Source: an uncultured Alphaproteobacteria bacterium
GTDB taxonomy: Bacteria > Pseudomonadota > Alphaproteobacteria > SP197
Direction of reading: 5' to 3'
Length of the DNA stretch: 64,000 nt
Assembly (NCBI GenBank): GCA_958295695.1
Contig: OY282363.1
Location: 1,113,156 to 1,177,155 of the forward strand
A program made the translations under genes and the position numbers. How positions within the stretch are numbered: position 1 is the stretch's first letter; each line of letters opens with the position of its first letter. This document shows positions 6,446 to 27,302 of this stretch, one piece after another. The notes beneath the pieces were generated by a model. The model did not search any database. It was given only the letters and a program-made list of their open reading frames with translations, and had not been told where the DNA came from.

Positions 6446-8155
6446 TCAGCGGAGGAGGTAGAGCTGGCCCAGGGCGACCCTGTCGACCGGCTCGCACCAC
6501 GCGCGTTCGCCGTCGATGAAGACGTCGAAGGTCTGCGGATCGACCCGGATGTCCGGCAGGGCGGCGTTGTGCAGCATGTCGCCCTTGGAGAGGTCGCGGG
6601 TGGGGCCGATGGCCGTCAGCGGCTTGGCCAGCCCGAGGCGGCCGGCGAGGTCCCGCTCGATCGCGCTGGGGTGCGCGAAGGTGGTGGAGATCGCCGGCGG
6701 CGCCGCGCCGACGGCGCCCCAGGCGCCGCGCATCCGCACGGGTTCGGCCGCGCCGACGCTGGCCGCCGCGTCGCCGATGGCGGCCCACGCCGTGAAGCCG
6801 CCCTTGATGACGGTCTGGGGCTTGAGCCCGAAGAAGGCCGGCTTCCAGAGCACGATGTCGGCCATCTTGCCGGGCTCCAGGCTGCCGACCTCGCCGTCGA
6901 TGCCGAACACGCGCGCCGCGTTGATCGTGATCTTGGCGAGATAGCGCAGGATGCGGGCGTTGTCGGCGCCGTCGAACGGCTCCTCGGGGAGGGGCCCGCG
7001 CTGGTCCTTCATCTTGCTCGCGAGCTGCCAGCAGCGCGCCACGACCTCGTTGACGCGCCCCATGCCCATGCTGTCGGAGCCGAACATCGAGATCGCGCCG
7101 ATGTCGTGCAGGATGTCCTCCGCGGCGATGGTCTGGGCGCGGATGCGGCTCTCGGCGAAGGCCACGTCCTCGGGGATGTCCGGCATCAGGTGGTGCACGG
7201 TCATGGTCATGTCGAGGTGTTCGTCGAAGGTGTTGACCGTGAACGGGTTGGTCGGGTTGGTCGAGGACGGCAGGCAGTTCTCCTCGCCGTTGCAGCGGAT
7301 GATGTCCGGCGCGTGGCCGCCGCCGGCGCCCTCGGTGTGGTACATGTGGATCGTGCGCCCGGCGATCGCCGCCATGGTCGATTCGTAGAAGCCGGACTCG
7401 TTCAGCGTGTCGGTGTGGATCTGGACCTGGAAGTCGAGCTCGTCGGCGACGGAAAGCGCGGTGTCGATCGCCGCGGGCGCCGCGCCGTAGTCCTCGTGGA
7501 TCTTCACCCCCAGGATGCCCGAGGCCGCCTGCTCGCGGATGCTCCCGGCGTCGTGGGTGCTGCCGCGGCCCAGGAAGCCGAAGTTCATCGGCATCGCCTC
7601 GACCGCCCGCAGCATGTTGGCCGTGGTCCAGCCGCCGCCCGAATCGATGGCGAAGAGCGGCCCGTGGCCGCCGCCCACCAGCGTCGTGAGGCCGGTCGAC
7701 AGGGCGTGCCGCACCAGGTCCGGCGTCTTGAAGTGGACGTGGACGTCGATGCCGCCGGGGGTGGCGATCAGCGTCTCGCCGTGGGCGACCACGGTCGAGG
7801 GCCCGCACACGAGGGCGGGGTCGACGCCGTCCATGACGTCGGGGTTGCCGGCCTTGCCGATCCCGACGACGCGCCCCTCGCGCACGCCGATGTCGCCCTT
7901 CACGACGCCGATGACGGGGTCGATCACGAGCGCGTTGTGGACGACGAGGTCGAGCGCGCCGTCGGCGTGGCGCTGGGCCGCCCGCATGCCCATCCCGTCC
8001 CGGTAGCTCTTGCCGCCGCCCGTGGCGAGCTCCTCGCCGGGGACCAGCCGGTCCTCGGCGACCTCGGCCAGGAGACTGGTGTCGCCGAGCCGCACCCGGT
8101 CGCCCTCGGTCGGGCCGAACGCCGCCGCGTAGGCGGCGCGGGTCATCTCCGCCAT
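6446..8155 (-). CDS. ureC: urease alpha subunit
   Basis: 569 aa. Conserved active-site ligands are present: [19 protein letters not shown]..., [24 protein letters not shown] (carbamyl-Lys), [47 protein letters not shown]. Confidence 0.95.
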
Positions 8156-8156
8156 G

Positions 8157-8858
8157 TCACGCTCCCCGGAAGCCGCGCGCGCGGGCGCGTTCGAGGGCCG
8201 CGGCCCTGACCCCGGGGTCGTGGATCGACCCCTCGGTCAGCCCGTGGAACCCGCTCACCGCGCCCTCGCCCCCGATCTCGACCAGCGCGACCTCGCGGCT
8301 CTCGCCGGGCTCGAAGCGGCGCGCGGCGCCCGCGGGTACGTCGAGGCGCATGCCGAAGGCGGCGGCGCGGTCGAACTCCAGCGCCGCGTTGGCTTCGAAG
8401 AAGTGGTGGTGGCTCCCGACCTGCACGGGCCGGTCGCCCGTGTTGAGGACCGTGAGCGTCGCCCCGCGCCGGCCCGCGTTCAGCGCCACCGCGCCGTCCG
8501 CCGCGACGACCTCGCCCGGGTGGATGTCGGCGCCGTCGACGGGCGTCTCGCCGCCGGGCCGGACGGGATCGTGCACCGTGATCAGCTTGGCGCCGTCGGG
8601 GAACAGGCCCTCGACCTGGACGACGGGCATCAGGCGGCGCACGCCCGGCATCACGTCGTCGGCGCTCAGGATCGTCGCGCCCCAGGCCGCGAGGTCCGCG
8701 ACCGTCCTGCCCTCCCGCGCGCCCTCCAGCAGGGCGTCGACGATCAGGGCCTGCGCCTCGGGATGGTTGAGCTTCAGCCCCTTCTCCTTCCTGCGCCGCG
8801 CCATTTCGGCGGCGGCGAAGATGACGATCCGCTCCATCTCGGTCGGTGTCAGCATCAT
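8157..8858 (-). CDS. ureAB: urease gamma-beta fused subunit (UreA-UreB fusion)
   Basis: 233 aa. The N-terminal ~100 aa match UreA ([35 protein letters not shown]...). The C-terminal ~130 aa match UreB ([40 protein letters not shown]...[10 protein letters not shown]). There is a 2-nt gap to ureC. Confidence 0.9.
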
Positions 8859-9968: not shown

Positions 9969-10262
9969 CGCGGTCTCGCTCGACGCCGCGTCATCATGGC
10001 CCGGCCGCGCCGGGCGTGTGAAGAGGCTTGTTCGACCGTGAAGCGCGGGACGAACCGCGCCGGCGCCGGTCTCGTCCGCGTCGCGGCGTTCCACGAGCCC
10101 GATGGCGGGACCCGCGCGCGTGAACTCGAGCGAGCCTTCGGCGGCCGCCCAGGGCGAGGGGATTTCGGGGCGGGTGTCGGGAGAACGCTCTTCCCCCCAT
10201 CCCGAACAGGCGCGCGGCGCCGTATCGAGGGAGCGCCCTCCTTCGCCCCGCCGCGAAGTTCC

Positions 10263-10291
10263 GGGGGGTTGACGGGGGGGTAGGGGTAGGA
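10263..10291 (+). other. G-quadruplex-forming motif (G6-N5-G7-N2-G4-N2-G2)
   Basis: ggggggttgacgggggggtaggggtagg, in the intergenic region between the 2OG oxygenase gene and the low-GC island. Confidence 0.3.
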
Positions 10292-10384
10292 GACTGCCGA
10301 AGTCCGGTTGGAAGGATCGCGGAAGCATGACGAGGTTGTTTCCCCGCAACGCCCCCCGCGCGTCGGGCTCGGCGGCCCATGGGC

Positions 10385-18363: not shown

Positions 18364-19503
18364 ATGGCGCATACGTTCGAGCGGGTTCCCCTGATGGCGC
18401 CCGGCCCCGGAACCGAGCGGTTCCTCGCGGCGCACCGCTTCGGAACGCCGGGCGCGCGGCCCAAGCTCTACTTCCACGCCGCGCTCCACGCCGACGAGCT
18501 GCCGGGCGCGCTGGTCCTCAACCGGATGCTGGGCTGGCTGAAGGAGGCCGACGCCGAAGGCGGTCTCTCCGGCGAGGTCGTCGTCGCGCCCTGCGCCAAC
18601 CCGGTCGGACTTTCCAACCGCGTCATGGGCTACCATCTCGGACGCTACGACCTGGACGGCGACGGCAACTTCAACCGCTGGTATCCGGACCTGGGCCGGA
18701 CGGTGGGCGACAGGGTCGGCGACCGGCTGGGCGACGACGAGGCGGAGAACGGCCGCCTGATCCGGGAGGCCTACCGGGAGGCCATCGAGGCGTGGGAGGC
18801 CCACGGCGAGGCCGACACCCTGCGCAAGACGCTGATGGCGCTGTCGGCCGATTGCGACTTCGTGTTCGACCTGCACTGCCACGGCGAGGCGGTCCAGTAC
18901 ATCTACATGCCGGAGAACCACTGGGAGCGCTACGGCGATCTGGCCGCCGAGCTCGGCTGCCGGACGGCGCTGCTGTTTCCGACCGACGCCGGGACCACCT
19001 TCGACACCGCGCCGACGGTCGTCTGGCATCGGCTGCGCGAATGCTTCCCCGACCGGCCGATCGCGGAGCCGCCGTTCACGACCACCCTGGAGCTGCGCGG
19101 CCAGAACGACGTGGGCGACGACATCGCGCTGCGCGACGCGCGCGGCCTGTGGCGCTTCCTGCAGCGCCACGGGATCGTCGCGGGCGATCCCGGCGACCCG
19201 CCGGAGCTGTTGTGCGAGCCGACGCCGGTCTCGGGTTCCGACAATCTCGTGGCGACCCGCGCCGGCGTCCTGTCCTACCGCGTCGATGTGGGCGGCCGGG
19301 TCGAGGCCGGCGACGTGGTGGCCGACATCGTCGATCCGGCGGAGGCGGACTTCGACGCGGCGCGCACGCCGGTGAGGAGCCGGGCGACGGGCGTTCTCTA
19401 CGGCCGGTCGATGAGCCGTCTGGTGCGGCCGGGCCAGTCGTTCGCCGTGGTGTCCGGGCGCGAGGCGCTTCCGGCCGGCGACCCGCCCGCGATCGACTAC
19501 TGA
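18364..19503 (+). CDS. succinylglutamate desuccinylase/aspartoacylase (AstE/AspA) family deacylase, paralog 1
   Basis: 379 aa with the AstE_AspA N-terminal Zn-site pattern FHAALHADELPG and DLHCHGEA. This is the family that contains DoeB (N-acetyl-diaminobutyrate deacetylase). Confidence 0.75.
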   Translation: MAHTFERVPLMAPGPGTERFLAAHRFGTPGARPKLYFHAALHADELPGALVLNRMLGWLKEADAEGGLSGEVVVAPCANPVGLSNRVMGYHLGRYDLDGDGNFNRWYPDLGRTVGDRVGDRLGDDEAENGRLIREAYREAIEAWEAHGEADTLRKTLMALSADCDFVFDLHCHGEAVQYIYMPENHWERYGDLAAELGCRTALLFPTDAGTTFDTAPTVVWHRLRECFPDRPIAEPPFTTTLELRGQNDVGDDIALRDARGLWRFLQRHGIVAGDPGDPPELLCEPTPVSGSDNLVATRAGVLSYRVDVGGRVEAGDVVADIVDPAEADFDAARTPVRSRATGVLYGRSMSRLVRPGQSFAVVSGREALPAGDPPAIDY

Positions 19504-19510
19504 GGCCGCC

Positions 19511-20614
19511 GTGACGCACCGCAAGGAGCATATCGACCTGCCCGTGGCCAGCCTCGGCACCCGGCGCCGCCTCGTCGTGCACCGCTTCGGGACGCCGGGC
19601 GCGCGGCCCAAGGCCTACCTCCACGCCGCGCTGCACGCCCAGGAGCTTCCCGGCGTCGTGGTCCTGGACCGCCTCGTCGCGCGCCTCCGGGAGGCCGACG
19701 CGGCCGGATCGGTCGCGGGCGAGGTCGTGGTCGTCCCCTTCGCCAACCCGATCGGGCTGTCCCAGCAGATCATGATGGAGGCCCAGGGCCGCCACGACCT
19801 CGATACGGGCCGCAACTACAACCGCGGGTTCCCGGATCTTATCGACGAGGTCGCCGACGCGGTCGACGGCCGCCTCGCCGGCGACGGCGCCCGCAACGTC
19901 GCGTTGATCCGCGAGGCCATGGCGTCGGCGCTCGCCGCCCGCCGCGACGCGCGCGAGGCGGACGTCCTGAAGCTCACGCTCCTGCGCCTGTCCTGCGACG
20001 CGGACCTCGTCCTCGACCTCCATTCGGCCTGGGAGGCGCTGCTCCACCTCTTCGTCACCGACCTCAACTGGCCCGGGGCGTCCGACCTCGCTCGCCAGAT
20101 GGGCGCCGAGGCGGTGCTGGTCGACCGCGGCAACCGTATGATGACGTTCAAGTCGGCCCATGCGCTCCTGTGGAAAGAGCTCGCGGCGCGCTTCCCCGAC
20201 CGTCCGGTCCCGCCGGGCAGCCTCGCCGCCGTGGTCGAGCTACGCGGACAGCGCGACGTCGACGACCGCTTCACCAAGCCGGACGCGGACAACCTGTTCC
20301 GCTGGCTGCAACGCCGCGGCGCGGTCGCCGGCGACCCCGGACCCCTGCCGCCGCCAGCGTGCGAGCCGCGCTCGGCGGACGGGCTGCGCCGCCTCTTCGC
20401 GGCGGAAGGCGGCATCGTCATCTACCGCGGCGCGCTCGGCGACCGCGTCCGGGAAGGCCGGGCCTTCGCCCACATCCTCGATCCCGACACGGGCCGCCGC
20501 ACCGCCGTCTCCGCGCCCGCCGACGGCCTGCTCTACGCCCGCCGTAGCCACCGGTTCGCCCGGAAGGGCCAGTATTTCGCCGCCATCGCGGGCGACACGT
20601 TCGTCGAGGATTAG
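19511..20614 (+). CDS. succinylglutamate desuccinylase/aspartoacylase (AstE/AspA) family deacylase, paralog 2
   Basis: 367 aa, colinear with paralog 1 (LHAALHAQELPG, DLHSAWEA). Starts 8 bp after paralog 1, so a tandem pair. Confidence 0.75.
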   Translation: MTHRKEHIDLPVASLGTRRRLVVHRFGTPGARPKAYLHAALHAQELPGVVVLDRLVARLREADAAGSVAGEVVVVPFANPIGLSQQIMMEAQGRHDLDTGRNYNRGFPDLIDEVADAVDGRLAGDGARNVALIREAMASALAARRDAREADVLKLTLLRLSCDADLVLDLHSAWEALLHLFVTDLNWPGASDLARQMGAEAVLVDRGNRMMTFKSAHALLWKELAARFPDRPVPPGSLAAVVELRGQRDVDDRFTKPDADNLFRWLQRRGAVAGDPGPLPPPACEPRSADGLRRLFAAEGGIVIYRGALGDRVREGRAFAHILDPDTGRRTAVSAPADGLLYARRSHRFARKGQYFAAIAGDTFVED

Positions 20615-20746
20615 GACGGCGGCGAGGGAACCGTCCGCGGCCCGCCGGCATCGCCGATGGGGCCGCCCGGACGACTCCGATCCGGCTCTTCCCTTTCAGT
20701 TATCCGGTTTCTCTCTTTCAGTTATACGATCTCGTCCTTTCAATGA

Positions 20747-20794
20747 ATTGTCCTATCGTTTTGAACCGGGAGCGGCGACGGTCCTTGAGTCTGT
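20747..20794. repeat. ~48-bp dispersed intergenic repeat, copy B (core TTGAACCGGGAGCGGCG), also at 2607-2654
   Basis: A 17-nt perfect core plus matching flanks (about 38/48 identity) between two intergenic regions. Confidence 0.5.
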
Positions 20795-20964
20795 CGAGGG
20801 AGACCGGTCCCGATCCAAGCCAATAGGATGACGCTCTAAACGACAGTTTTTTCAAACGGTTAACGGTCCGGAACAGCGGCGGGACAGCTGGTCGAGTCCA
20901 GCGGGAAGGCCGGACATGCCCGCCGTCCGGGCGCGCGGCTTCCGCCTCGCCCGCGCGCCCTGGA

Positions 20965-22203
20965 TCAATCGCGCGCGATCTCACGGAGCGCGGCGATCAG
21001 GCGGTCGACCTCGGCCAGCGTGTTGTAGTGCGCGAGGGAGCAGCGGACGACGCCGTCCGCGGGATCGACGCCGACCGCGTCGAGGATGCGGGGCGCGTAG
21101 AAATGCCCCGCGCCGGCGGCGACGCCCCTGGCCTCCAGGAGCGCAGGGACATCCTGGCTCCTCACGCCCGCGACCGTGAAGCTGAAGGTCGGCGCGCGGC
21201 GGTCGCGGTCGGTCGCGGTCCGGCCGATAACGCGGATCTTCGGATGATCGGCCGCGAAGCCGAGGAAGCGGGCCGAGAGGCTTTCCTCGTGACGGGCGAT
21301 GATCCCGAACACCTGCCGCATGCGGCCGTGGAGGTCGTCGGCGGGCTCGTCCAGATGGTGCGCCGCGAGCGCCTCGAAATACTCGCCGACGCCGACGCAG
21401 CCGGCCGTGAGCTCGTGGTTCGGCGCGCCGGGGTTCATCTTGAGCGGCAGGTCGTCCTCGCCGTGGAAAAAGAAATACTGGCCTTTCGCCTTCAGCAGGT
21501 GTTCGCGCTTGCCGTACATCGCGCCCAGATGCGGCCCGTAGGTCTTGTAGAGGCTGAAGAGGTAGAAATCGACGTCGAGCGCCTTCACGTCGACGCTCGC
21601 GTGCGGCGCGAAGGCCACGCCGTCGACGCAGACCCGGCCCCCCGCGTCGTGGACCGTGGCGGCGATCTCGGCCACCGGGTTCGGGCCGCCCGTGATGTTG
21701 GAACAGTGCGAGAAGGCGACCAGGCGCGTCCTCTCCGAGAGCATCGCGCGCAGCGTCTCGGGCTCCAGCTCGGCGGTCTCCGGATCGACCCGCCATTCGC
21801 GCACCGCGACGCCGGACTCCGCGAGGCGGCGCCAATGGCCGTTGTTGGCTTCGTGATCGAGGTTGGTGACGATCACCTCGCCGCCCACGAGCTCGTCGCG
21901 CAGGGCCGCGGCAAGCGCGATCGCGTTGCGCGTCGTCGAAGGCCCGACGACCACCTCGTCGGGGTCCGCGTTGATCATGGCCGCCACCGTCTCGTGGCCC
22001 TTCCTCATGCGCGCCTCGGCCTCCCGCGCGATCGCCGCGTTGGCGCCGGGCTGCACATGGCATTCGGTCATGTAGTCCCGGACCCGGTCGATCACCGTGC
22101 GGGGCGCCAGGCTGCCGCCGGCGTTCTCCATGAAGGCCCAGCCGTCGTCGAGCGCCGGAAAGAAGGCGCGGACGAAATCGAGGTCGAGCGGCTTGTCCGG
22201 CAC
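20965..22203 (-). CDS. class V-fold PLP-dependent aminotransferase (cysteine desulfurase/isopenicillin-N-epimerase-like)
   Basis: 412 aa with a PLP-lysine context SLYKTYGPHLGAMYG and HCSNITG. Stop of the upstream decarboxylase gene is 4 bp before its start. Confidence 0.75.
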   Translation of the reverse strand: MPDKPLDLDFVRAFFPALDDGWAFMENAGGSLAPRTVIDRVRDYMTECHVQPGANAAIAREAEARMRKGHETVAAMINADPDEVVVGPSTTRNAIALAAALRDELVGGEVIVTNLDHEANNGHWRRLAESGVAVREWRVDPETAELEPETLRAMLSERTRLVAFSHCSNITGGPNPVAEIAATVHDAGGRVCVDGVAFAPHASVDVKALDVDFYLFSLYKTYGPHLGAMYGKREHLLKAKGQYFFFHGEDDLPLKMNPGAPNHELTAGCVGVGEYFEALAAHHLDEPADDLHGRMRQVFGIIARHEESLSARFLGFAADHPKIRVIGRTATDRDRRAPTFSFTVAGVRSQDVPALLEARGVAAGAGHFYAPRILDAVGVDPADGVVRCSLAHYNTLAEVDRLIAALREIARD

Positions 22204-22207
22204 GGCG

Positions 22208-23638
22208 CTACTCCCGGACGCGGGCGGCGTCGCCGAACCGGACGATCCTCTCGATCGTGCCGGCGAGGTCGTCGTCGCCGATGCGGGGATTGATGGTGCA
22301 GAAGCGCAGGCAGGTGCGCCCCTTGAGTTCCGTGGAGGTCACGAAGGCGAAACCGTCGTCGAGCAGGGCCGCGACGATCCCGCGCTGCAAACCGCTCGTT
22401 TCCGCCTCGTCGAGGCCGTCGCGCAGAAGACGGAAGGTCACGACGGCCAGCGTGGGCTCCGTGACGATCTCGAAGCGGCCGCTCGCGCGCATCATCGCCG
22501 CGGCGCGTTCCGCGGTGGCGATGCCGCGCCGGACGGCCCGCCGGAAGGCCGCCGCGCCGAACACCTTGAGCGAGAGCCACAGCTTGAAGGCGCGGAGCCC
22601 GCGCGAGAGCTGGAGGCCGCGCTCGGAGAAGTTCACCTCGCCGTCGCCTTCGGCGACATCCTGGAGATATTCGGGGCTGGCCGCGAAGGCATGGTTCAGC
22701 AGGCCCGGCTCGCGCACGAAGCAGATGCCGGCCTCGTAGGGCTGGAACAGCCACTTGTGGGGGTCGATCACCACGGAATCGCCGCGCTCCATGCCGGCAA
22801 GCAGCGCGCGGCCGTCCTCGACGAGGGCGGCGGCGGCGCCATAGGCGCCGTCGATATGGACCCACAGTCCGAACTCGTCCGCCAGATCGGCGATTCCGTG
22901 GAGGTCGTCGACCGCGCCGGTGTTGGTTGTTCCGGCGTTCGCGACGATGCAGAACGGCCTGAGGCCCGCCTCGCGGTCGCGCCCGACCGCCGCGCGCAGC
23001 CGGTCGAGGTCGATACGGTAGTCGTCGCCCGTGGCGACCGTGCGAAGCTGGTTCGCGCGGAAGCCCAGGATGCGCAGGGCGCGCGCCACGCAGCTGTGGG
23101 TCTGGTCCGCGCAGTAGGCCACGGCGCCGGTCATGTCGTCGCCCAGCTTGTGGTCCCGGGCGACGGCGAGCCCGATCATGTTGGCGACCGAGCCGCCGCT
23201 GGTGAAGACGCCGTCGGCGTGGCCCTCGAGGCCCGCGAGCTCCTTCACCCACTCGAGCGTCGTGAGCTCGCATTCGACCGGCCCCGGCGTCTCGCGCCAC
23301 ATGCTGGCCGCGGCGTTGTAGCCCGACGCGAGCGCGTCGGCGACCGCCGCGACATAGTTGGACGGTCCCGGCACGAAGGCCAGGAAGCGGGGATGCGCGA
23401 TCCGCCCCATCGCGCCGAAGACATGCCGGTCGGCGAAGGCGAGCGCCTCCCTCCAGTCCCCGGCGTCCTCGGGCAGCGGCTCGCGCAGGGCGCCGCGCAA
23501 GGTCGCGAGATCGGCGTCGACGGCCGCGGGCGTCCCGGTCATGGCCGACCAGTGCTCGACCAGCCTGTCGACCGCATGGTAGCCCAGCGCCCGCATTTCC
23601 TCGGGCGAGAGCTCGAGCCGCCCCGGGTCCCTGGTCAT
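22208..23638 (-). CDS. group II pyridoxal-dependent decarboxylase (DABA/glutamate/aromatic-amino-acid/CSAD family)
   Basis: 476 aa. PLP-Lys motif SVVIDPHKWLFQPYEAG and GGSVANMIGLAVAR are typical of Pyridoxal_deC. Confidence 0.8.
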   Translation of the reverse strand: MTRDPGRLELSPEEMRALGYHAVDRLVEHWSAMTGTPAAVDADLATLRGALREPLPEDAGDWREALAFADRHVFGAMGRIAHPRFLAFVPGPSNYVAAVADALASGYNAAASMWRETPGPVECELTTLEWVKELAGLEGHADGVFTSGGSVANMIGLAVARDHKLGDDMTGAVAYCADQTHSCVARALRILGFRANQLRTVATGDDYRIDLDRLRAAVGRDREAGLRPFCIVANAGTTNTGAVDDLHGIADLADEFGLWVHIDGAYGAAAALVEDGRALLAGMERGDSVVIDPHKWLFQPYEAGICFVREPGLLNHAFAASPEYLQDVAEGDGEVNFSERGLQLSRGLRAFKLWLSLKVFGAAAFRRAVRRGIATAERAAAMMRASGRFEIVTEPTLAVVTFRLLRDGLDEAETSGLQRGIVAALLDDGFAFVTSTELKGRTCLRFCTINPRIGDDDLAGTIERIVRFGDAARVRE

Positions 23639-23678
23639 GGTCCCGCGTAGCGCGGCGGCCGCGCCGGGGCAAGGGGCT

Positions 23679-24161
23679 TCAACGGGCCGGCGACGCCTCC
23701 GCCCCTCCCAGCCAACGGGCGAGCGCCTTGTCCGGATCGGCGAGGCGCTCGACCGAATCGTACCAGTGGGTTTGCCAGCCGCGCTCCGGGAGCCCGGCGA
23801 ACAGCATCAGGTTCAGGGGATAGACCTCGCTGTCGGTGCAGCGCCTGAAGTCGTCGCGAAAGAGGAAGACCGCTTTCCCCCAGGCGATCGCCATGCCGAG
23901 CTCCACCATGACTCCCTCGTCCGGCGGGCAGCCGTTGACGACCGCGAACAGGCCGTCCGCCTCGCGCACATCGCCGAGGTCGGCCTGCCCGATCCGGTAG
24001 GCCCAGCCGGAGCTCGCCCGGTCGATCTGGTTGTTGCGGGCGAACGGCTCCCATACCTCGGCGCCGATCGCTTCCAGGGCCGAGACGAGTTCCGCCAGCG
24101 GCCCGGCGCGCTGCTGCGTCGAAAACCCGTAGGGGTTCGCCAGATAAAGGGTCCTGGTCAT
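23679..24161 (-). CDS. nucleoside 2-deoxyribosyltransferase-fold protein (NDT/DNPH1/MilB-like putative N-glycosidase)
   Basis: 160 aa MTRTLYLANPYGFS...GLFAVVNGCPPDEGVMVELGMAIAWGKAVFLF, a Rossmann-like NDT-family pattern. It sits 40 bp upstream of the decarboxylase on the same strand. The track start is overextended. Confidence 0.6.
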   Translation of the reverse strand: MTRTLYLANPYGFSTQQRAGPLAELVSALEAIGAEVWEPFARNNQIDRASSGWAYRIGQADLGDVREADGLFAVVNGCPPDEGVMVELGMAIAWGKAVFLFRDDFRRCTDSEVYPLNLMLFAGLPERGWQTHWYDSVERLADPDKALARWLGGAEASPAR

Positions 24162-24330
24162 GTTCCCGCGCCTCGATTCCCGTCGGCACCCCCGACGGAC
24201 ATTCATACACGACCTTCGGGAGTTTATGAATCTGGATGGCGCGGCTCCGAACATTCGCGATCCGGCCCGGCGCGTCTGGCGACGCGGGCGGCCTCGTGCC
24301 ATGGTCCGCCCGGATCGGAGGGAGAACGCG

Positions 24331-24876
24331 ATGACCGCCGCCGCCGAAGGCCGCCTGACGCCGCTCGCGCCCGAAGAATGGGACGCTTCGCTGGCCGGTG
24401 TCCTGGCGGGCCTCGGGGGTCCGCTCAACATCCACGGCGTCATCGCGCGCAATCCGGCGCCGATGCGAAGCTACATCGGCCTGCGCGGCCACGTGGTGGC
24501 CAGTGGCTCGCTGAGCCCGCGCCAGCGGGAGCTCGTCATCCTCCGGGTCGCGCGCCTGACGGGCTGCGCCTGCGAGTGGGGCCACCATGTGGCGCGGGGC
24601 CGCGCCGCCGGGTTCGACGACCGCGAGATCGCGCGCATCCGGGACGGATCCGGGGGCTGGCCGGCCGACGAGGCGCTCCTGATCCAGGCGGTCGACGACA
24701 TGCTGTCCGGCTGGCGGATCTCGCCCGGCACATGGTCGGCCCTGTGCGCCGCGTTCGACGACAACCGGCTTCTCGACGCCTTCTTCACCGTTGGCGTCTA
24801 CGTCACCCTGTCGGCCATCCTGAACACGGCCGGGGCGCCGCGCGAGGACGGCTTCGCGGCGGAGGGCCTGGCGTGA
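24331..24876 (+). CDS. carboxymuconolactone decarboxylase (CMD/AhpD-like) family protein
   Basis: ~181 aa containing a CxxxH-like core (LTGCACEWGHHVARG) typical of the CMD family. Confidence 0.65.
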   Translation: MTAAAEGRLTPLAPEEWDASLAGVLAGLGGPLNIHGVIARNPAPMRSYIGLRGHVVASGSLSPRQRELVILRVARLTGCACEWGHHVARGRAAGFDDREIARIRDGSGGWPADEALLIQAVDDMLSGWRISPGTWSALCAAFDDNRLLDAFFTVGVYVTLSAILNTAGAPREDGFAAEGLA

Positions 24877-25241
24877 CCGCGACGATCGCCTTTCATCTGG
24901 CGGCGGCCCTGTCGGCGCTCGCGCTCGGCGCGGCCAATCTGGCGTTCGCCAAGGGCACGCCGCGCCATCGCCTCGTGGGCTGGATGTGGCTCGCGGCGAT
25001 GGCGTGCGTGACGCTGCCGTCGTTCGCGATCCGCGAGGTCGGCCAGGGGAGCTTCAGCTGGATCCACGGCCTCTCCGTCTGGACCCTCGTCAGCATGGCG
25101 GTCGCGGTCGCAGCCATCCGGCGCAACAGGGTCCGGCTGCATGCCGGGTTCATGGTCGGAACCATGGCGGGCGTCGTCGTCGCCGGCCTGTTCGCGCTCG
25201 CGCCCGGGCGGGAGATCAGCCGGATCCTGGGCTACGGCTGA
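24873..25241 (+). CDS. small integral membrane protein (DUF2306-like, 3-4 TM)
   Basis: GTG start overlapping the CMD stop (GTGA). ~122 aa, highly hydrophobic. Confidence 0.4.
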   Translation: MTATIAFHLAAALSALALGAANLAFAKGTPRHRLVGWMWLAAMACVTLPSFAIREVGQGSFSWIHGLSVWTLVSMAVAVAAIRRNRVRLHAGFMVGTMAGVVVAGLFALAPGREISRILGYG

Positions 25242-26048
25242 GCAGGCCGGCCGGCGATGCGGGCTCCGTCTCGCGCGGGTTTCCCGTCGACCAGGATGGC
25301 GTCGACCTTCCCGGGGTAGAAGCAGAGATAGCCGGCGATCCGGCGCGCCTCGTCGAGCGGTTCGGGATAGAACCAGACCGCGTTCTCGACGGTCGCGCCA
25401 CCGGCCCGCAGATGGTGGTGGCGCGCCCGGCCCTTGTAGGGACAGCCGGTGACGCGGTCGGACGGGAGCAGGGCGGCGGCCTTCACGTCCTCGCGCGGGA
25501 TGTAGTAGCGCGGCGGGAGGCCGGTCTCGAACAGGAAACGGGCGCGGGCCGTGCGGGCGACGGTCTCGCCGCCGACGATCACCTCGACCGGCCGGCCGCT
25601 CTCCAGGATATCGACGCGCACGAACGGGTCGCGGGCGTGGACGAAGACCTCCTCGTCCTCCTCGTACCAGCGGTCCATCCGGTCCCAGGCGAAGCCGAGC
25701 CAGCCGGCGAGGGCGGCGAACTCGTCGTAGGGCGTCTCGTAGCTCCAGACGGCGTTCTCCTCCGCCCGCCCGTCCGCGGCCAGCGTGTAGTAGCTGGCGT
25801 GGCCCTTGAACGGGCACCGGGTGCGGCGGTCCGTTCGCGTCATGAGGTCCATGTCGGCGTCGTCGCGCGGGATGTAGTAGAGCGCGATGTGGCCGGTCTC
25901 GCAGACCACCGCCGCGCGCGGTGTCGAACACGGCGCGTCCCCCGAAGACGGCGCGCACGCGCTTGGCGCATGGCGCGATGTCGACCCGGTAGTCCGGGCG
26001 GGCGGCGTATCCCGGCGCGCCGTTCCGTCGCGCTTCGGCGGTCGCCAT
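25232..26048 (-). pseudogene. tandem double DUF427 protein, disrupted by an apparent 1-nt frameshift near 25935 (or sequencing error)
   Basis: Frame B begins MATAEARRNG...VRAVFGGRAVFDTAR. Frame A continues AAVVCETGHIALYYIPRDD...CPFKGHASYYTL and a second copy ...YYIPREDV...CPYKGRARHHHL. Deleting one G in gcgcgcggcggtggtc restores a continuous two-domain ORF. Confidence 0.55.
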
Positions 26049-26294
26049 GGCTCCTCCTCCCCGTCGGTGCGGCGGCCATTATGCCCGGAGCGGGCCGCGG
26101 GCGACACGATCCGGGCCTAACCGGCTTTGCCGGAATCGCTCCGGGACCGCGATTGCGGCCCCGCCGGCTTGCCGGCGCCCGCTCAAGGCGCGGCCCACGG
26201 GGCCGCTTGCCGCGGGCGACGAGCAAGCCACGGCGTTTCCGTCTTCGACGGAAACGCTGTAGGTTCCGGCGGCTCGGGCGCGACGGGGAGAGAC

Positions 26295-27302
26295 ATGAGC
26301 GACGACGACATCGACCGGGGCGTGCCCGAGGCGCGCAAGCTGGCTTGGGGCGCGGTCTACAAGCCGCGCTATTCCGGCGTGGCGACCTTCATGCGCCAGG
26401 AGTTGAGGGAAGATCCGGACGCCTGGGACGGCGTCGAGGTCGGCCTGATCGGCGCGCCCTTCGACGGCGGCGTCACCAACCGCCCGGGCGCCCGCCACGG
26501 ACCGCGCGCCCTGCGCGACCAGTCGACGCTGATGGGGCGCGTCAACCACCAGACCGGAGTCAGGCCCTACGACTGGGCGGTCTCCGCCGACCTCGGCGAC
26601 GTCCCGATCGAAGGCGTCTACGAGCTCGACCGCGCGATCGACGACATCGAGGCGTTCTACGCCAAGGTCGTGGCGGCGGGCGTCGTACCGCTCACGGCCG
26701 GCGGCGACCATTCGATCACGCTGCCCATCATGCGCGCGATCTCGAAGCACCGGGGCGGGCCGGTCGGCATGGTTCATTTCGACGCCCACTGCGACACGGG
26801 CCCGGAGCTCTTCGGCCACAAGCACCACCACGGCGGGCCCTTCCGCTGCGCCGTGGAGGACGGCGCGCTCGATCCCCGGCGCACGATCCAGATCGGCATC
26901 CGCGGGCCCGCCGAGGCGCTGTGGGACTTCAGCTACGACTCGGGCATGACCGTGATCCACATCGAGGAGCTCTACGCCATGGGGCTCGACGCGGCGGTCG
27001 CCAGGGCGCGCGATGTCGTCGGCGCCGGGCCAACCTATGTCAGCTTCGATGTCGACGGCATGGATCCGGTCTATGCGCCCGGCACCGGCACGCCCGAGGT
27101 GGGCGGCTTCACCGCCTTCGAGGCCCAGAAGATGCTGCGCGGCCTGATGGGGCTCGACATCGTCGGCGGCGACGTGGTCGAGGTCTCCCCGCCCTTCGAC
27201 ACGGCCAACATCACCGCGCTCAACGGCGTCCAGATGATGTGGGAGATGCTCTGCCTGATGGCCGACAGGATCGGCCGGGAGAAAGGACGGATCGAGACCT
27301 GA
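26295..27302 (+). CDS. agmatinase/arginase-family ureohydrolase (agmatinase, guanidinobutyrase or guanidinopropionase-like)
   Basis: 335 aa with Mn-binding motifs GGDHSIT, DAHCDT, SFDVDGMDP. The product is predicted to be urea plus an amine. Confidence 0.8.
   Translation: MSDDDIDRGVPEARKLAWGAVYKPRYSGVATFMRQELREDPDAWDGVEVGLIGAPFDGGVTNRPGARHGPRALRDQSTLMGRVNHQTGVRPYDWAVSADLGDVPIEGVYELDRAIDDIEAFYAKVVAAGVVPLTAGGDHSITLPIMRAISKHRGGPVGMVHFDAHCDTGPELFGHKHHHGGPFRCAVEDGALDPRRTIQIGIRGPAEALWDFSYDSGMTVIHIEELYAMGLDAAVARARDVVGAGPTYVSFDVDGMDPVYAPGTGTPEVGGFTAFEAQKMLRGLMGLDIVGGDVVEVSPPFDTANITALNGVQMMWEMLCLMADRIGREKGRIET

Follow-up and report, generated by a model that had tools for sequence, protein, structure and literature searches.

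The 64,000-nucleotide stretch of contig OY282363.1 analysed here (hereafter the window), from an uncultured alphaproteobacterium (assembly GCA_958295695.1, positions 1,113,156 to 1,177,155), carries on its minus strand three closely spaced genes, encoding in order of reading a nucleoside 2'-deoxyribosyltransferase (NDT), a group II decarboxylase dependent on pyridoxal phosphate (PLP) and a PLP enzyme of the class V fold. An earlier note on this DNA, made from the letters and a list of open reading frames (ORFs), took them for a single operon whose substrate or product may carry a (deoxy)ribosyl or nucleotide moiety. The question that the locus raises is thus whether the three genes belong together at all. 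Probably they do not, and what is seen is the accidental adjacency of two unrelated units, the NDT gene and an older two-gene amino-acid operon. All three proteins are of known kinds, and the trio is neither a known system nor a new one; it is a lineage-specific juxtaposition.

The evidence that carries this reading comes from the neighbourhoods of the genes elsewhere. Homologues of the NDT were collected with 8-kb flanks at 81 loci (L002-L082; 80 from a one-genome-per-species scan and one from a protein look-up), and tblastn found neither decarboxylase nor class V enzyme at any of them. With the neighbouring CMD, AstE and arginase-family proteins of the window added as queries, NDT remained the only one of these genes present, bar one arginase-family match (L070). 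Clustering all ORFs of the 81 loci against each other gave no neighbour family occurring in more than 10; a conserved NDT partner was therefore sought in vain and rejected, the clustering having returned only antisense shadow ORFs of NDT itself. From the other side, NDT is absent from all nine decarboxylase-ortholog loci and from all 80 loci of the class V enzyme found in a metagenome scan. The co-occurrence analysis that had been proposed thus came out negative on every side (0/81, 0/9 and 0/80), so that NDT, decarboxylase and class V enzyme are not a conserved gene cluster, and NDT is a stand-alone gene everywhere outside the lineage of the window.

The other two genes do have regular company. 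Homologues of the decarboxylase show an ordinary identity gradient (85, 81, 72, 70 ... 59%), and nine distinct ortholog loci, 59-85% identical, were read and re-scored by tblastn. The class V orthologue (62-82% identity) lies beside the decarboxylase in seven of the nine, a divergent CMD gene in five, a gene for a HalD-like iron- and 2-oxoglutarate-dependent (Fe/2OG) oxygenase directly upstream in four, and a polar amino-acid ABC transporter downstream in three, with a truncated copy of the latter in L084. The CMD orthologues, 47-64% identical to that of the window, stand divergently upstream of the decarboxylase operon in those five loci and in L094-L097. Among these, the close metagenome loci L095-L097 (73-78% identity) have CMD facing one or two copies of HalD, then decarboxylase and class V enzyme; L088, L091, L095 and L097 have ABC/SBP_bac_3 genes behind the class V gene. 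The recurrent order is therefore CMD (divergent), one or two HalD-like genes, decarboxylase, an FGM3/UstD-like class V enzyme, and the transporter; the pair is also found without a HalD-like gene, in L090, L093 and L086. The conserved unit is the decarboxylase with the class V enzyme, to which relatives add CMD, hydroxylase and transporter. The HalD-like proteins of the relatives, such as the one encoded at 7132-7968 of L088, contain an HxD motif and a distal histidine, and had no sequence hit among solved structures; in this superfamily the HxD motif is a mark of hydroxylases, not of halogenases. The decarboxylase operon is also eroding independently in several lineages. A separate observation concerns L094, in which (at 6762-6992) a decarboxylase cut down to residues 1-28 and 409-476 is flanked by CMD on one side and by a class V enzyme that is intact on the other, with no HalD-like gene.

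Synteny with the relatives shows where the NDT gene stands with respect to this unit. L084 has the same wider frame as the window -- CMD, decarboxylase, class V enzyme, two AstE genes and a Rieske oxygenase -- its CMD being 58% identical, and its decarboxylase, class V, AstE and Rieske proteins 70-79% identical, to those of the window. A convergent AstE pair like that of the window also closes L095, and the AstE orthologues of L084 and L095 are 72-78% identical to those of the window. In both, the HalD-like gene occupies exactly the position that NDT has in the window. No HalD homologue was found anywhere in the 64 kb of the window, nor any remnant of a transporter after the class V enzyme. 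The arrangement with NDT is shared only by L001, a 99% identical strain whose NDT is identical to that of the window. An older operon, of which the decarboxylase and class V pair is the part conserved in relatives, would thus have lost its hydroxylase and transporter in the lineage of the window, with NDT coming to lie in the position of the first gene. In that position NDT probably has its transcription driven by the old divergent promoter region, and some read-through into the two PLP genes may occur. (Strain L001 differs from the window in the gap that separates AstE from the class V enzyme: it has there a 1.4-kb segment with an AAA_14/DUF4143 ATPase at 13287-14710, as against 133 bp of low-GC sequence at 20743-20875 in the window; this is a strain-level insertion or deletion.)

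An 18-nt direct repeat, with one copy over the start codon of NDT and the other over that of the decarboxylase, is the sole direct repeat in 23400-24500, and its spacing of 523 nt equals the NDT gene plus the spacer behind it. Any such repeat arose in 13 of 2000 Markov-1 simulations. Possibly it is the scar left by an insertion or replacement event, or the microhomology involved in it. As proof of a target-site duplication it was rejected, and it is kept as a hint only, because similar native start contexts of the two families explain part of it: at the start, homologues of NDT read GGGACC-ATG-xxx-ARG-AC and orthologues of the decarboxylase ATG-ACx-xxx-GAy-CC.

Judged from its sequence, the 160-aa protein is a true nucleoside 2'-deoxyribosyltransferase, type II-like and belonging to the CtNDT clade, and as such an ordinary stand-alone enzyme of nucleoside and base salvage. 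It matches PF05014 with 92.4 bits (cut-off 28.8) over profile positions 1-117 of 117, so that the fold family named in the earlier note holds; of the two profiles suggested there for comparison, PF05014 alone matches and LOG (PF03641) does not, PF05014 being the sole Pfam family at E <= 0.01, and the protein is neither a LOG nor an unrelated Rossmann protein. Against the CtNDT structures (8PQP-8PQT, 8QC0, 8RH3) it aligns without gaps over residues 3-153, with about 70% identity and E = 1e-68. CtNDT is the crystallised and kinetically characterised enzyme of Chroococcidiopsis thermalis PCC 7203, a tetramer that forms a covalent deoxyribosyl-Glu88 intermediate, with Tyr7 and Asp62 beside the nucleophile (PMC10913048). 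The window protein is of the same length class and keeps all of the residues in question, Y6, D61, E87, D110 and M119 corresponding to Y7, D62, E88, D111 and M120 of CtNDT; the nucleophilic glutamate, which the earlier note had wished to see checked, is thus in place. One difference lies at Ser10 of CtNDT, which is Asn9 in the window protein and likewise in nearly all of the 81 close homologues. By transfer from CtNDT, Glu87 would attack C1' of a (deoxy)nucleoside to give a covalent deoxyribosyl-enzyme, with Tyr6 and Asp61 placing the glutamate and the sugar, and the sugar would then be handed to another base or to water, which amounts to salvage. The N-glycosidases DNPH1/Rcl, MilB and BlsM, to which the protein had been likened, belong to the same Pfam fold family and also use glutamate-based glycosyl chemistry, but their similarity to it is marginal (E = 0.0046 for BlsM, 0.047-0.33 for Rcl/DNPH1 and 0.47-0.83 for MilB-type proteins); the window protein groups with the nucleoside transferases, and lies outside any nucleoside-antibiotic cluster.

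The clade to which it belongs is compact and widespread. The 81 homologues are 73-84% identical to the window NDT, and a 50%-clustered protein library holds 78 representatives at E <= 1e-30. Their hosts are spread over ten phyla or classes (Acidobacteriota, Alphaproteobacteria, Gammaproteobacteria, Thermodesulfobacteriota, Nitrospirota, Binatota, Spirochaetota, Myxococcota, Chloroflexota and Dadabacteria), homologues from which are about 77-84% identical to the window protein, with a mean identity of 83.3% within these groups and 80.9% between them; pairs from different phyla reach 95%, the nearest neighbour lies in another group for 12 of the 81, and in 66 of the 160 alignment columns invariance is 98% or more. 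A combination of horizontal spread and very strong constraint probably accounts for this pattern. A recent transfer cannot be read from composition, and that idea was rejected, since the GC content of the gene follows that of its flanks across the range 0.45-0.74 (r = 0.89), the third-position GC of the window NDT (0.89) matching its host as well. Carriage by mobile elements was likewise rejected, as a tblastn search of 72,556 plasmids and 50,697 phage records gave no hit. What it is that holds the protein at some 80% identity across ten phyla or classes is a question that this clade raises, and it also has a practical side: transferases of the CtNDT type serve in nucleoside biocatalysis, and a clade so well conserved offers many natural variants. 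Among the source genomes whose origin was checked, several are from sponge symbionts (Ircinia ramosa being the host of the SB06xx bins and Aplysina aerophoba that of the APA bins), and a literature search on deoxyribosyltransferases with sponges and symbionts found nothing relevant.

The third gene had been called a SufS-like aminotransferase, a name that does not fit it. Its product matches PF00266 with 194.8 bits and falls far below the cut-offs of all cysteine desulfurase equivalog models. Its nearest solved relatives are two enzymes that act on C-C bonds, FGM3 (E = 5e-80; 41% identity over 388 aa, end to end) and UstD (E = 2e-52), with SufS and CsdA only after these, at about 1e-37. These last share the class V fold, but in the alignment to Bacillus subtilis SufS the GHHCA segment that holds the catalytic cysteine stands opposite GHFYA, with a tyrosine at the position of the cysteine, and persulfide chemistry is therefore not expected. 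Around the PLP lysine, YKTYGPH of the window enzyme (in SLYKTYGPH) stands opposite YKVYGPH of FGM3 and YKLFGPH of UstD; the tyrosine two residues past the lysine is thus common to the window enzyme and FGM3, and is a phenylalanine in UstD. FGM3, from Fusarium graminearum, is a PLP retro-aldolase that splits 4-hydroxy-L-arginine between C-beta and C-gamma into L-alanine plus an aldehyde (PMC10967133, PMC10055224), and a tyrosine near the gamma-hydroxyl has been proposed as its general base (PMC10055224). The window tyrosine corresponds to the published Y225 only if an offset of one residue in the numbering is assumed. From these likenesses in sequence the class V enzyme is predicted to be a C-beta/C-gamma lyase (a retro-aldolase), and neither an aminotransferase nor a cysteine desulfurase; the gene should be called by neither of the latter names.

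The likeness to FGM3 (PDB 9X4U and related) extends from the retained lysine and tyrosine, and the missing desulfurase cysteine, to the genetic setting, since the orthologues of the window enzyme in relatives are also partnered with a gene for an amino-acid hydroxylase. The fungal system differs in having a P450 as the partner, where the bacterial operon of the relatives has a HalD-like Fe/2OG enzyme plus the decarboxylase, and no hydroxylase is adjacent in the window itself. UstD (PDB 7MKV), from ustiloxin biosynthesis, falls into one clade with the window enzyme, that of class V-fold enzymes lacking the catalytic cysteine; it differs in being a decarboxylative aldol enzyme, which forms a C-C bond. 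Against TIGR01976, the VC1184 "cysteine desulfurase-like protein" family, the window enzyme scores 344.0 bits over model positions 2-401 of 401, slightly below the cut-off of that model (352.35).

Arginase-family genes are seen in the neighbourhood of some of these enzymes. In the metagenome loci L141, L146, L147, L150 and L151, arginase/agmatinase-family genes stand 2-5 kb or less from distant class V homologues (33-36% identity); in the window an arginase-family gene (26127-27302) lies 4 kb from the class V enzyme and a urease (6446-8858) 12 kb away. These neighbours hint that the enzymes may be connected with guanidino-compound metabolism, as would suit the action of FGM3 on hydroxy-arginine, and they fit the pathway sketched for the relatives below.

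For the second gene the family assignment made earlier, a group II PLP decarboxylase, is borne out by a PF00282 match of 220.6 bits. The translation contains DPHKW, the PLP-lysine motif of the family. Among solved structures the best relative (E = 1e-83) is chain 4obu, which bears the deposited name "Pyridoxal-dependent decarboxylase domain protein" and is presumably the tryptophan decarboxylase of Ruminococcus gnavus. DOPA, tryptophan and tyrosine decarboxylases follow, with E values of up to 1e-50, and plant and insect aromatic-amino-acid decarboxylases are among the closest. The protein thus shares the group II fold with the aromatic L-amino acid, tryptophan and tyrosine decarboxylases, which are its best solved relatives, and differs in that it reaches no NCBIfam equivalog model at cut-off, the best being that of DABA decarboxylase with 206 bits against the 900 needed. 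Cysteine sulfinate and glutamate decarboxylases are more distant (E = 1e-31 to 1e-34, as against 1e-83). A role of both PLP enzymes in cysteine sulfinate, taurine or other sulfur chemistry, prompted by the SufS-like label and by CMD/OsmC neighbours, was dropped, as no desulfurase cysteine is present in the class V enzyme and the decarboxylase stands nearer to the aromatic-amino-acid type.

What the older operon did can be sketched from its parts in the relatives. The most economical reading, we infer, is one of amino-acid uptake, hydroxylation and retro-aldol cleavage, with the decarboxylase as a branch. An amino acid, possibly arginine, lysine or ornithine, would be imported by the adjacent polar amino-acid ABC transporter; the hydroxylase, of the HalD/BesD family, would turn it into a gamma-hydroxy amino acid; the FGM3-like retro-aldolase would then split this into L-alanine and an amino- or guanidino-aldehyde; and the decarboxylase would act on the same amino acid as the class V enzyme or on a related one. 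On this basis the idea may be put forward, tentatively, that the pair in the window is what is left of an amino-acid pathway of bacteria, as yet uncharacterised, which is intact in relatives, its hydroxylase having been displaced here by a horizontally spreading and very strongly conserved NDT. Should this be so, it would give the bacterial TIGR01976 (VC1184) family its first physiological role, and the recurrent operon of hydroxylase, decarboxylase, FGM3-like lyase and transporter suggests a possible function for what is a large family of "cysteine desulfurase-like" proteins.

Whether the three genes are transcribed together is a separate matter. The coordinates and gaps given for them in the earlier note were confirmed by the ORF list and by Pfam, all on the minus strand. 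Co-transcription is plausible from the short gaps and from the site scan, in which no terminator-like site was found on that strand; a 71-nt stretch (23630-23700) across the spacer between NDT and decarboxylase folds no better than shuffled sequence (z = +1.24). The divergent intergenic region between NDT and CMD is presumed to hold the promoter of the minus-strand unit, though no sigma-70-like consensus was found in it, and Rfam gave zero matches to riboswitches or other RNA elements in 20000-25500.

It is this close spacing, on one strand and with gaps of 40 and 4 bp free of terminator-like sites, that speaks for the nucleoside-linked pathway (nucleoside-antibiotic or cytokinin-like) first thought of, in which the NDT-fold protein would act as an N-glycosidase; enzymes of that fold do act as CMP or dNMP N-glycosidases elsewhere, and BlsM, MilB and DNPH1 are among the weak hits. 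Such a pathway is nevertheless highly improbable: the three genes do not co-occur in any of the 81 + 9 + 80 related loci, the protein is orthologous to a nucleoside transferase (E = 1e-68, as against 0.005-0.8 for the N-glycosidases), no other genes for a nucleoside pathway lie in the neighbourhood, and relatives have a hydroxylase at the position of NDT. There is thus no support for a product with a (deoxy)ribosyl or nucleotide moiety, and neither annotation nor genome mining should treat the locus as a nucleoside-linked biosynthetic cluster. A cluster of the Streptomyces nucleoside-antibiotic type, which the GC content of 72% had suggested, was also rejected: the closest homologues come from metagenome-assembled genomes, alphaproteobacterial and other, and the neighbourhood contains no genes of that kind. 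A related idea needs no shared intermediate: NDT may have been kept at the head of the operon after loss of the hydroxylase because its co-expression with the PLP enzymes was beneficial, for example by tying nucleoside salvage to amino-acid or nitrogen catabolism. The gene is indeed intact, sits exactly in the slot of the first gene, has a third-position GC (0.89) like that of the host and is identical in the window and L001, and the 18-nt repeat gives both start codons one sequence context. Such a recruitment is still considered unlikely, as the arrangement occurs in one lineage only, NDT homologues elsewhere lie in unrelated contexts, and nothing separates selected from neutral co-expression. 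The converse, that the PLP pair is a decaying remnant without a pathway function and NDT the one working gene, draws on the absence of hydroxylase and ABC transporter from the window and on the erosion seen elsewhere (the decarboxylase fragments of L094, the truncated ABC gene of L084); it is quite improbable in view of two full-length reading frames with high third-position GC, of the intact PLP-lysine motifs DPHKW and SLYKTYGPH, and of the orthologous pairs in L090, L093 and L086, which indicate that the pair can stand without that hydroxylase.

Accidental adjacency of NDT and an older amino-acid operon accounts best for these observations, and several points weigh against it. The tight same-strand spacing and the lack of a detectable terminator may mean co-expression and with it some selected coupling. 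The arrangement is confined to one species-level lineage (the window and L001), which does not fix its age or its selective value. The 18-nt repeat could mark the insertion event, yet the native start contexts may explain it. As for the amino-acid operon, the class V enzyme falls 8 bits short of the TIGR01976 cut-off, and the substrates predicted for it and for the decarboxylase are drawn by analogy with their relatives.

The coordinates of the features are collected in Table 1. At a GC content of about 72% the raw ORF lists of the window are full of spurious frames, and coding support for the three minus-strand genes comes from third-codon-position GC, which in the matching frames is 0.87-0.98. 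NDT is taken to start at the ATG at 24161, in agreement with the N-termini of the 81 homologues, which begin M-x-(K/R)-T-L-Y there or two residues earlier. The start of CMD was set at the point where homology to its orthologues begins, and not at the first ATG of the ORF, which gives the divergent intergenic region its length.

Table 1. Features of the locus in the window, followed by the loci of relatives that carry the recurrent operon.
Feature	Position	Strand	Remarks
NDT (nucleoside 2'-deoxyribosyltransferase, CtNDT-type)	23679-24161	minus	160 aa; PF05014
Group II PLP decarboxylase, aromatic-amino-acid-decarboxylase-like branch	22208-23638	minus	476 aa; PF00282
Class V-fold PLP enzyme, probable VC1184/UstD/FGM3 group	20965-22203	minus	412 aa; PF00266
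Spacer, NDT stop to decarboxylase start	23639-23678	minus	40 bp
Gap, decarboxylase to class V enzyme	22204-22207		4 bp (ORF list)
Divergent intergenic region NDT/CMD	24162-24330	no strand	169 bp; presumed promoter region of minus-strand unit
CMD/AhpD-like protein, divergent neighbour	24331-24876	plus	PF02627 at 50 bits
Two tandem AstE/AspA-family genes (succinylglutamate desuccinylase/aspartoacylase-like), convergent on the operon	18364-20614	plus	PF24827 in both
Low-GC gap, end of minus-strand unit to convergent AstE	20615-20964		350 bp; GC 0.40-0.67
18-nt direct repeat, copy 1	24153-24170		covers NDT start codon; 17/18 identical
18-nt direct repeat, copy 2	23630-23647		covers decarboxylase start codon; 17/18 identical
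Recurrent operon, L088	7132-13969		
Recurrent operon, L091	6272-15176		
Recurrent operon, L092	4472-8125		
Recurrent operon, L095	4656-9990		
Recurrent operon, L096			
Recurrent operon, L097			
Recurrent operon, L084	7089-10751		

Beyond the AstE pair the minus strand carries the Rieske/Ring_hydroxyl_A oxygenase (17071-18234), a protein whose two cupin domains are ectoine-synthase-like (15946-16830) and a fusion of an FlK thioesterase with a DSBA domain (14877-15890). Further along, the window contains a 2-kb stretch (10001-12000) with a GC content of 0.54, as against about 0.70-0.75 elsewhere.

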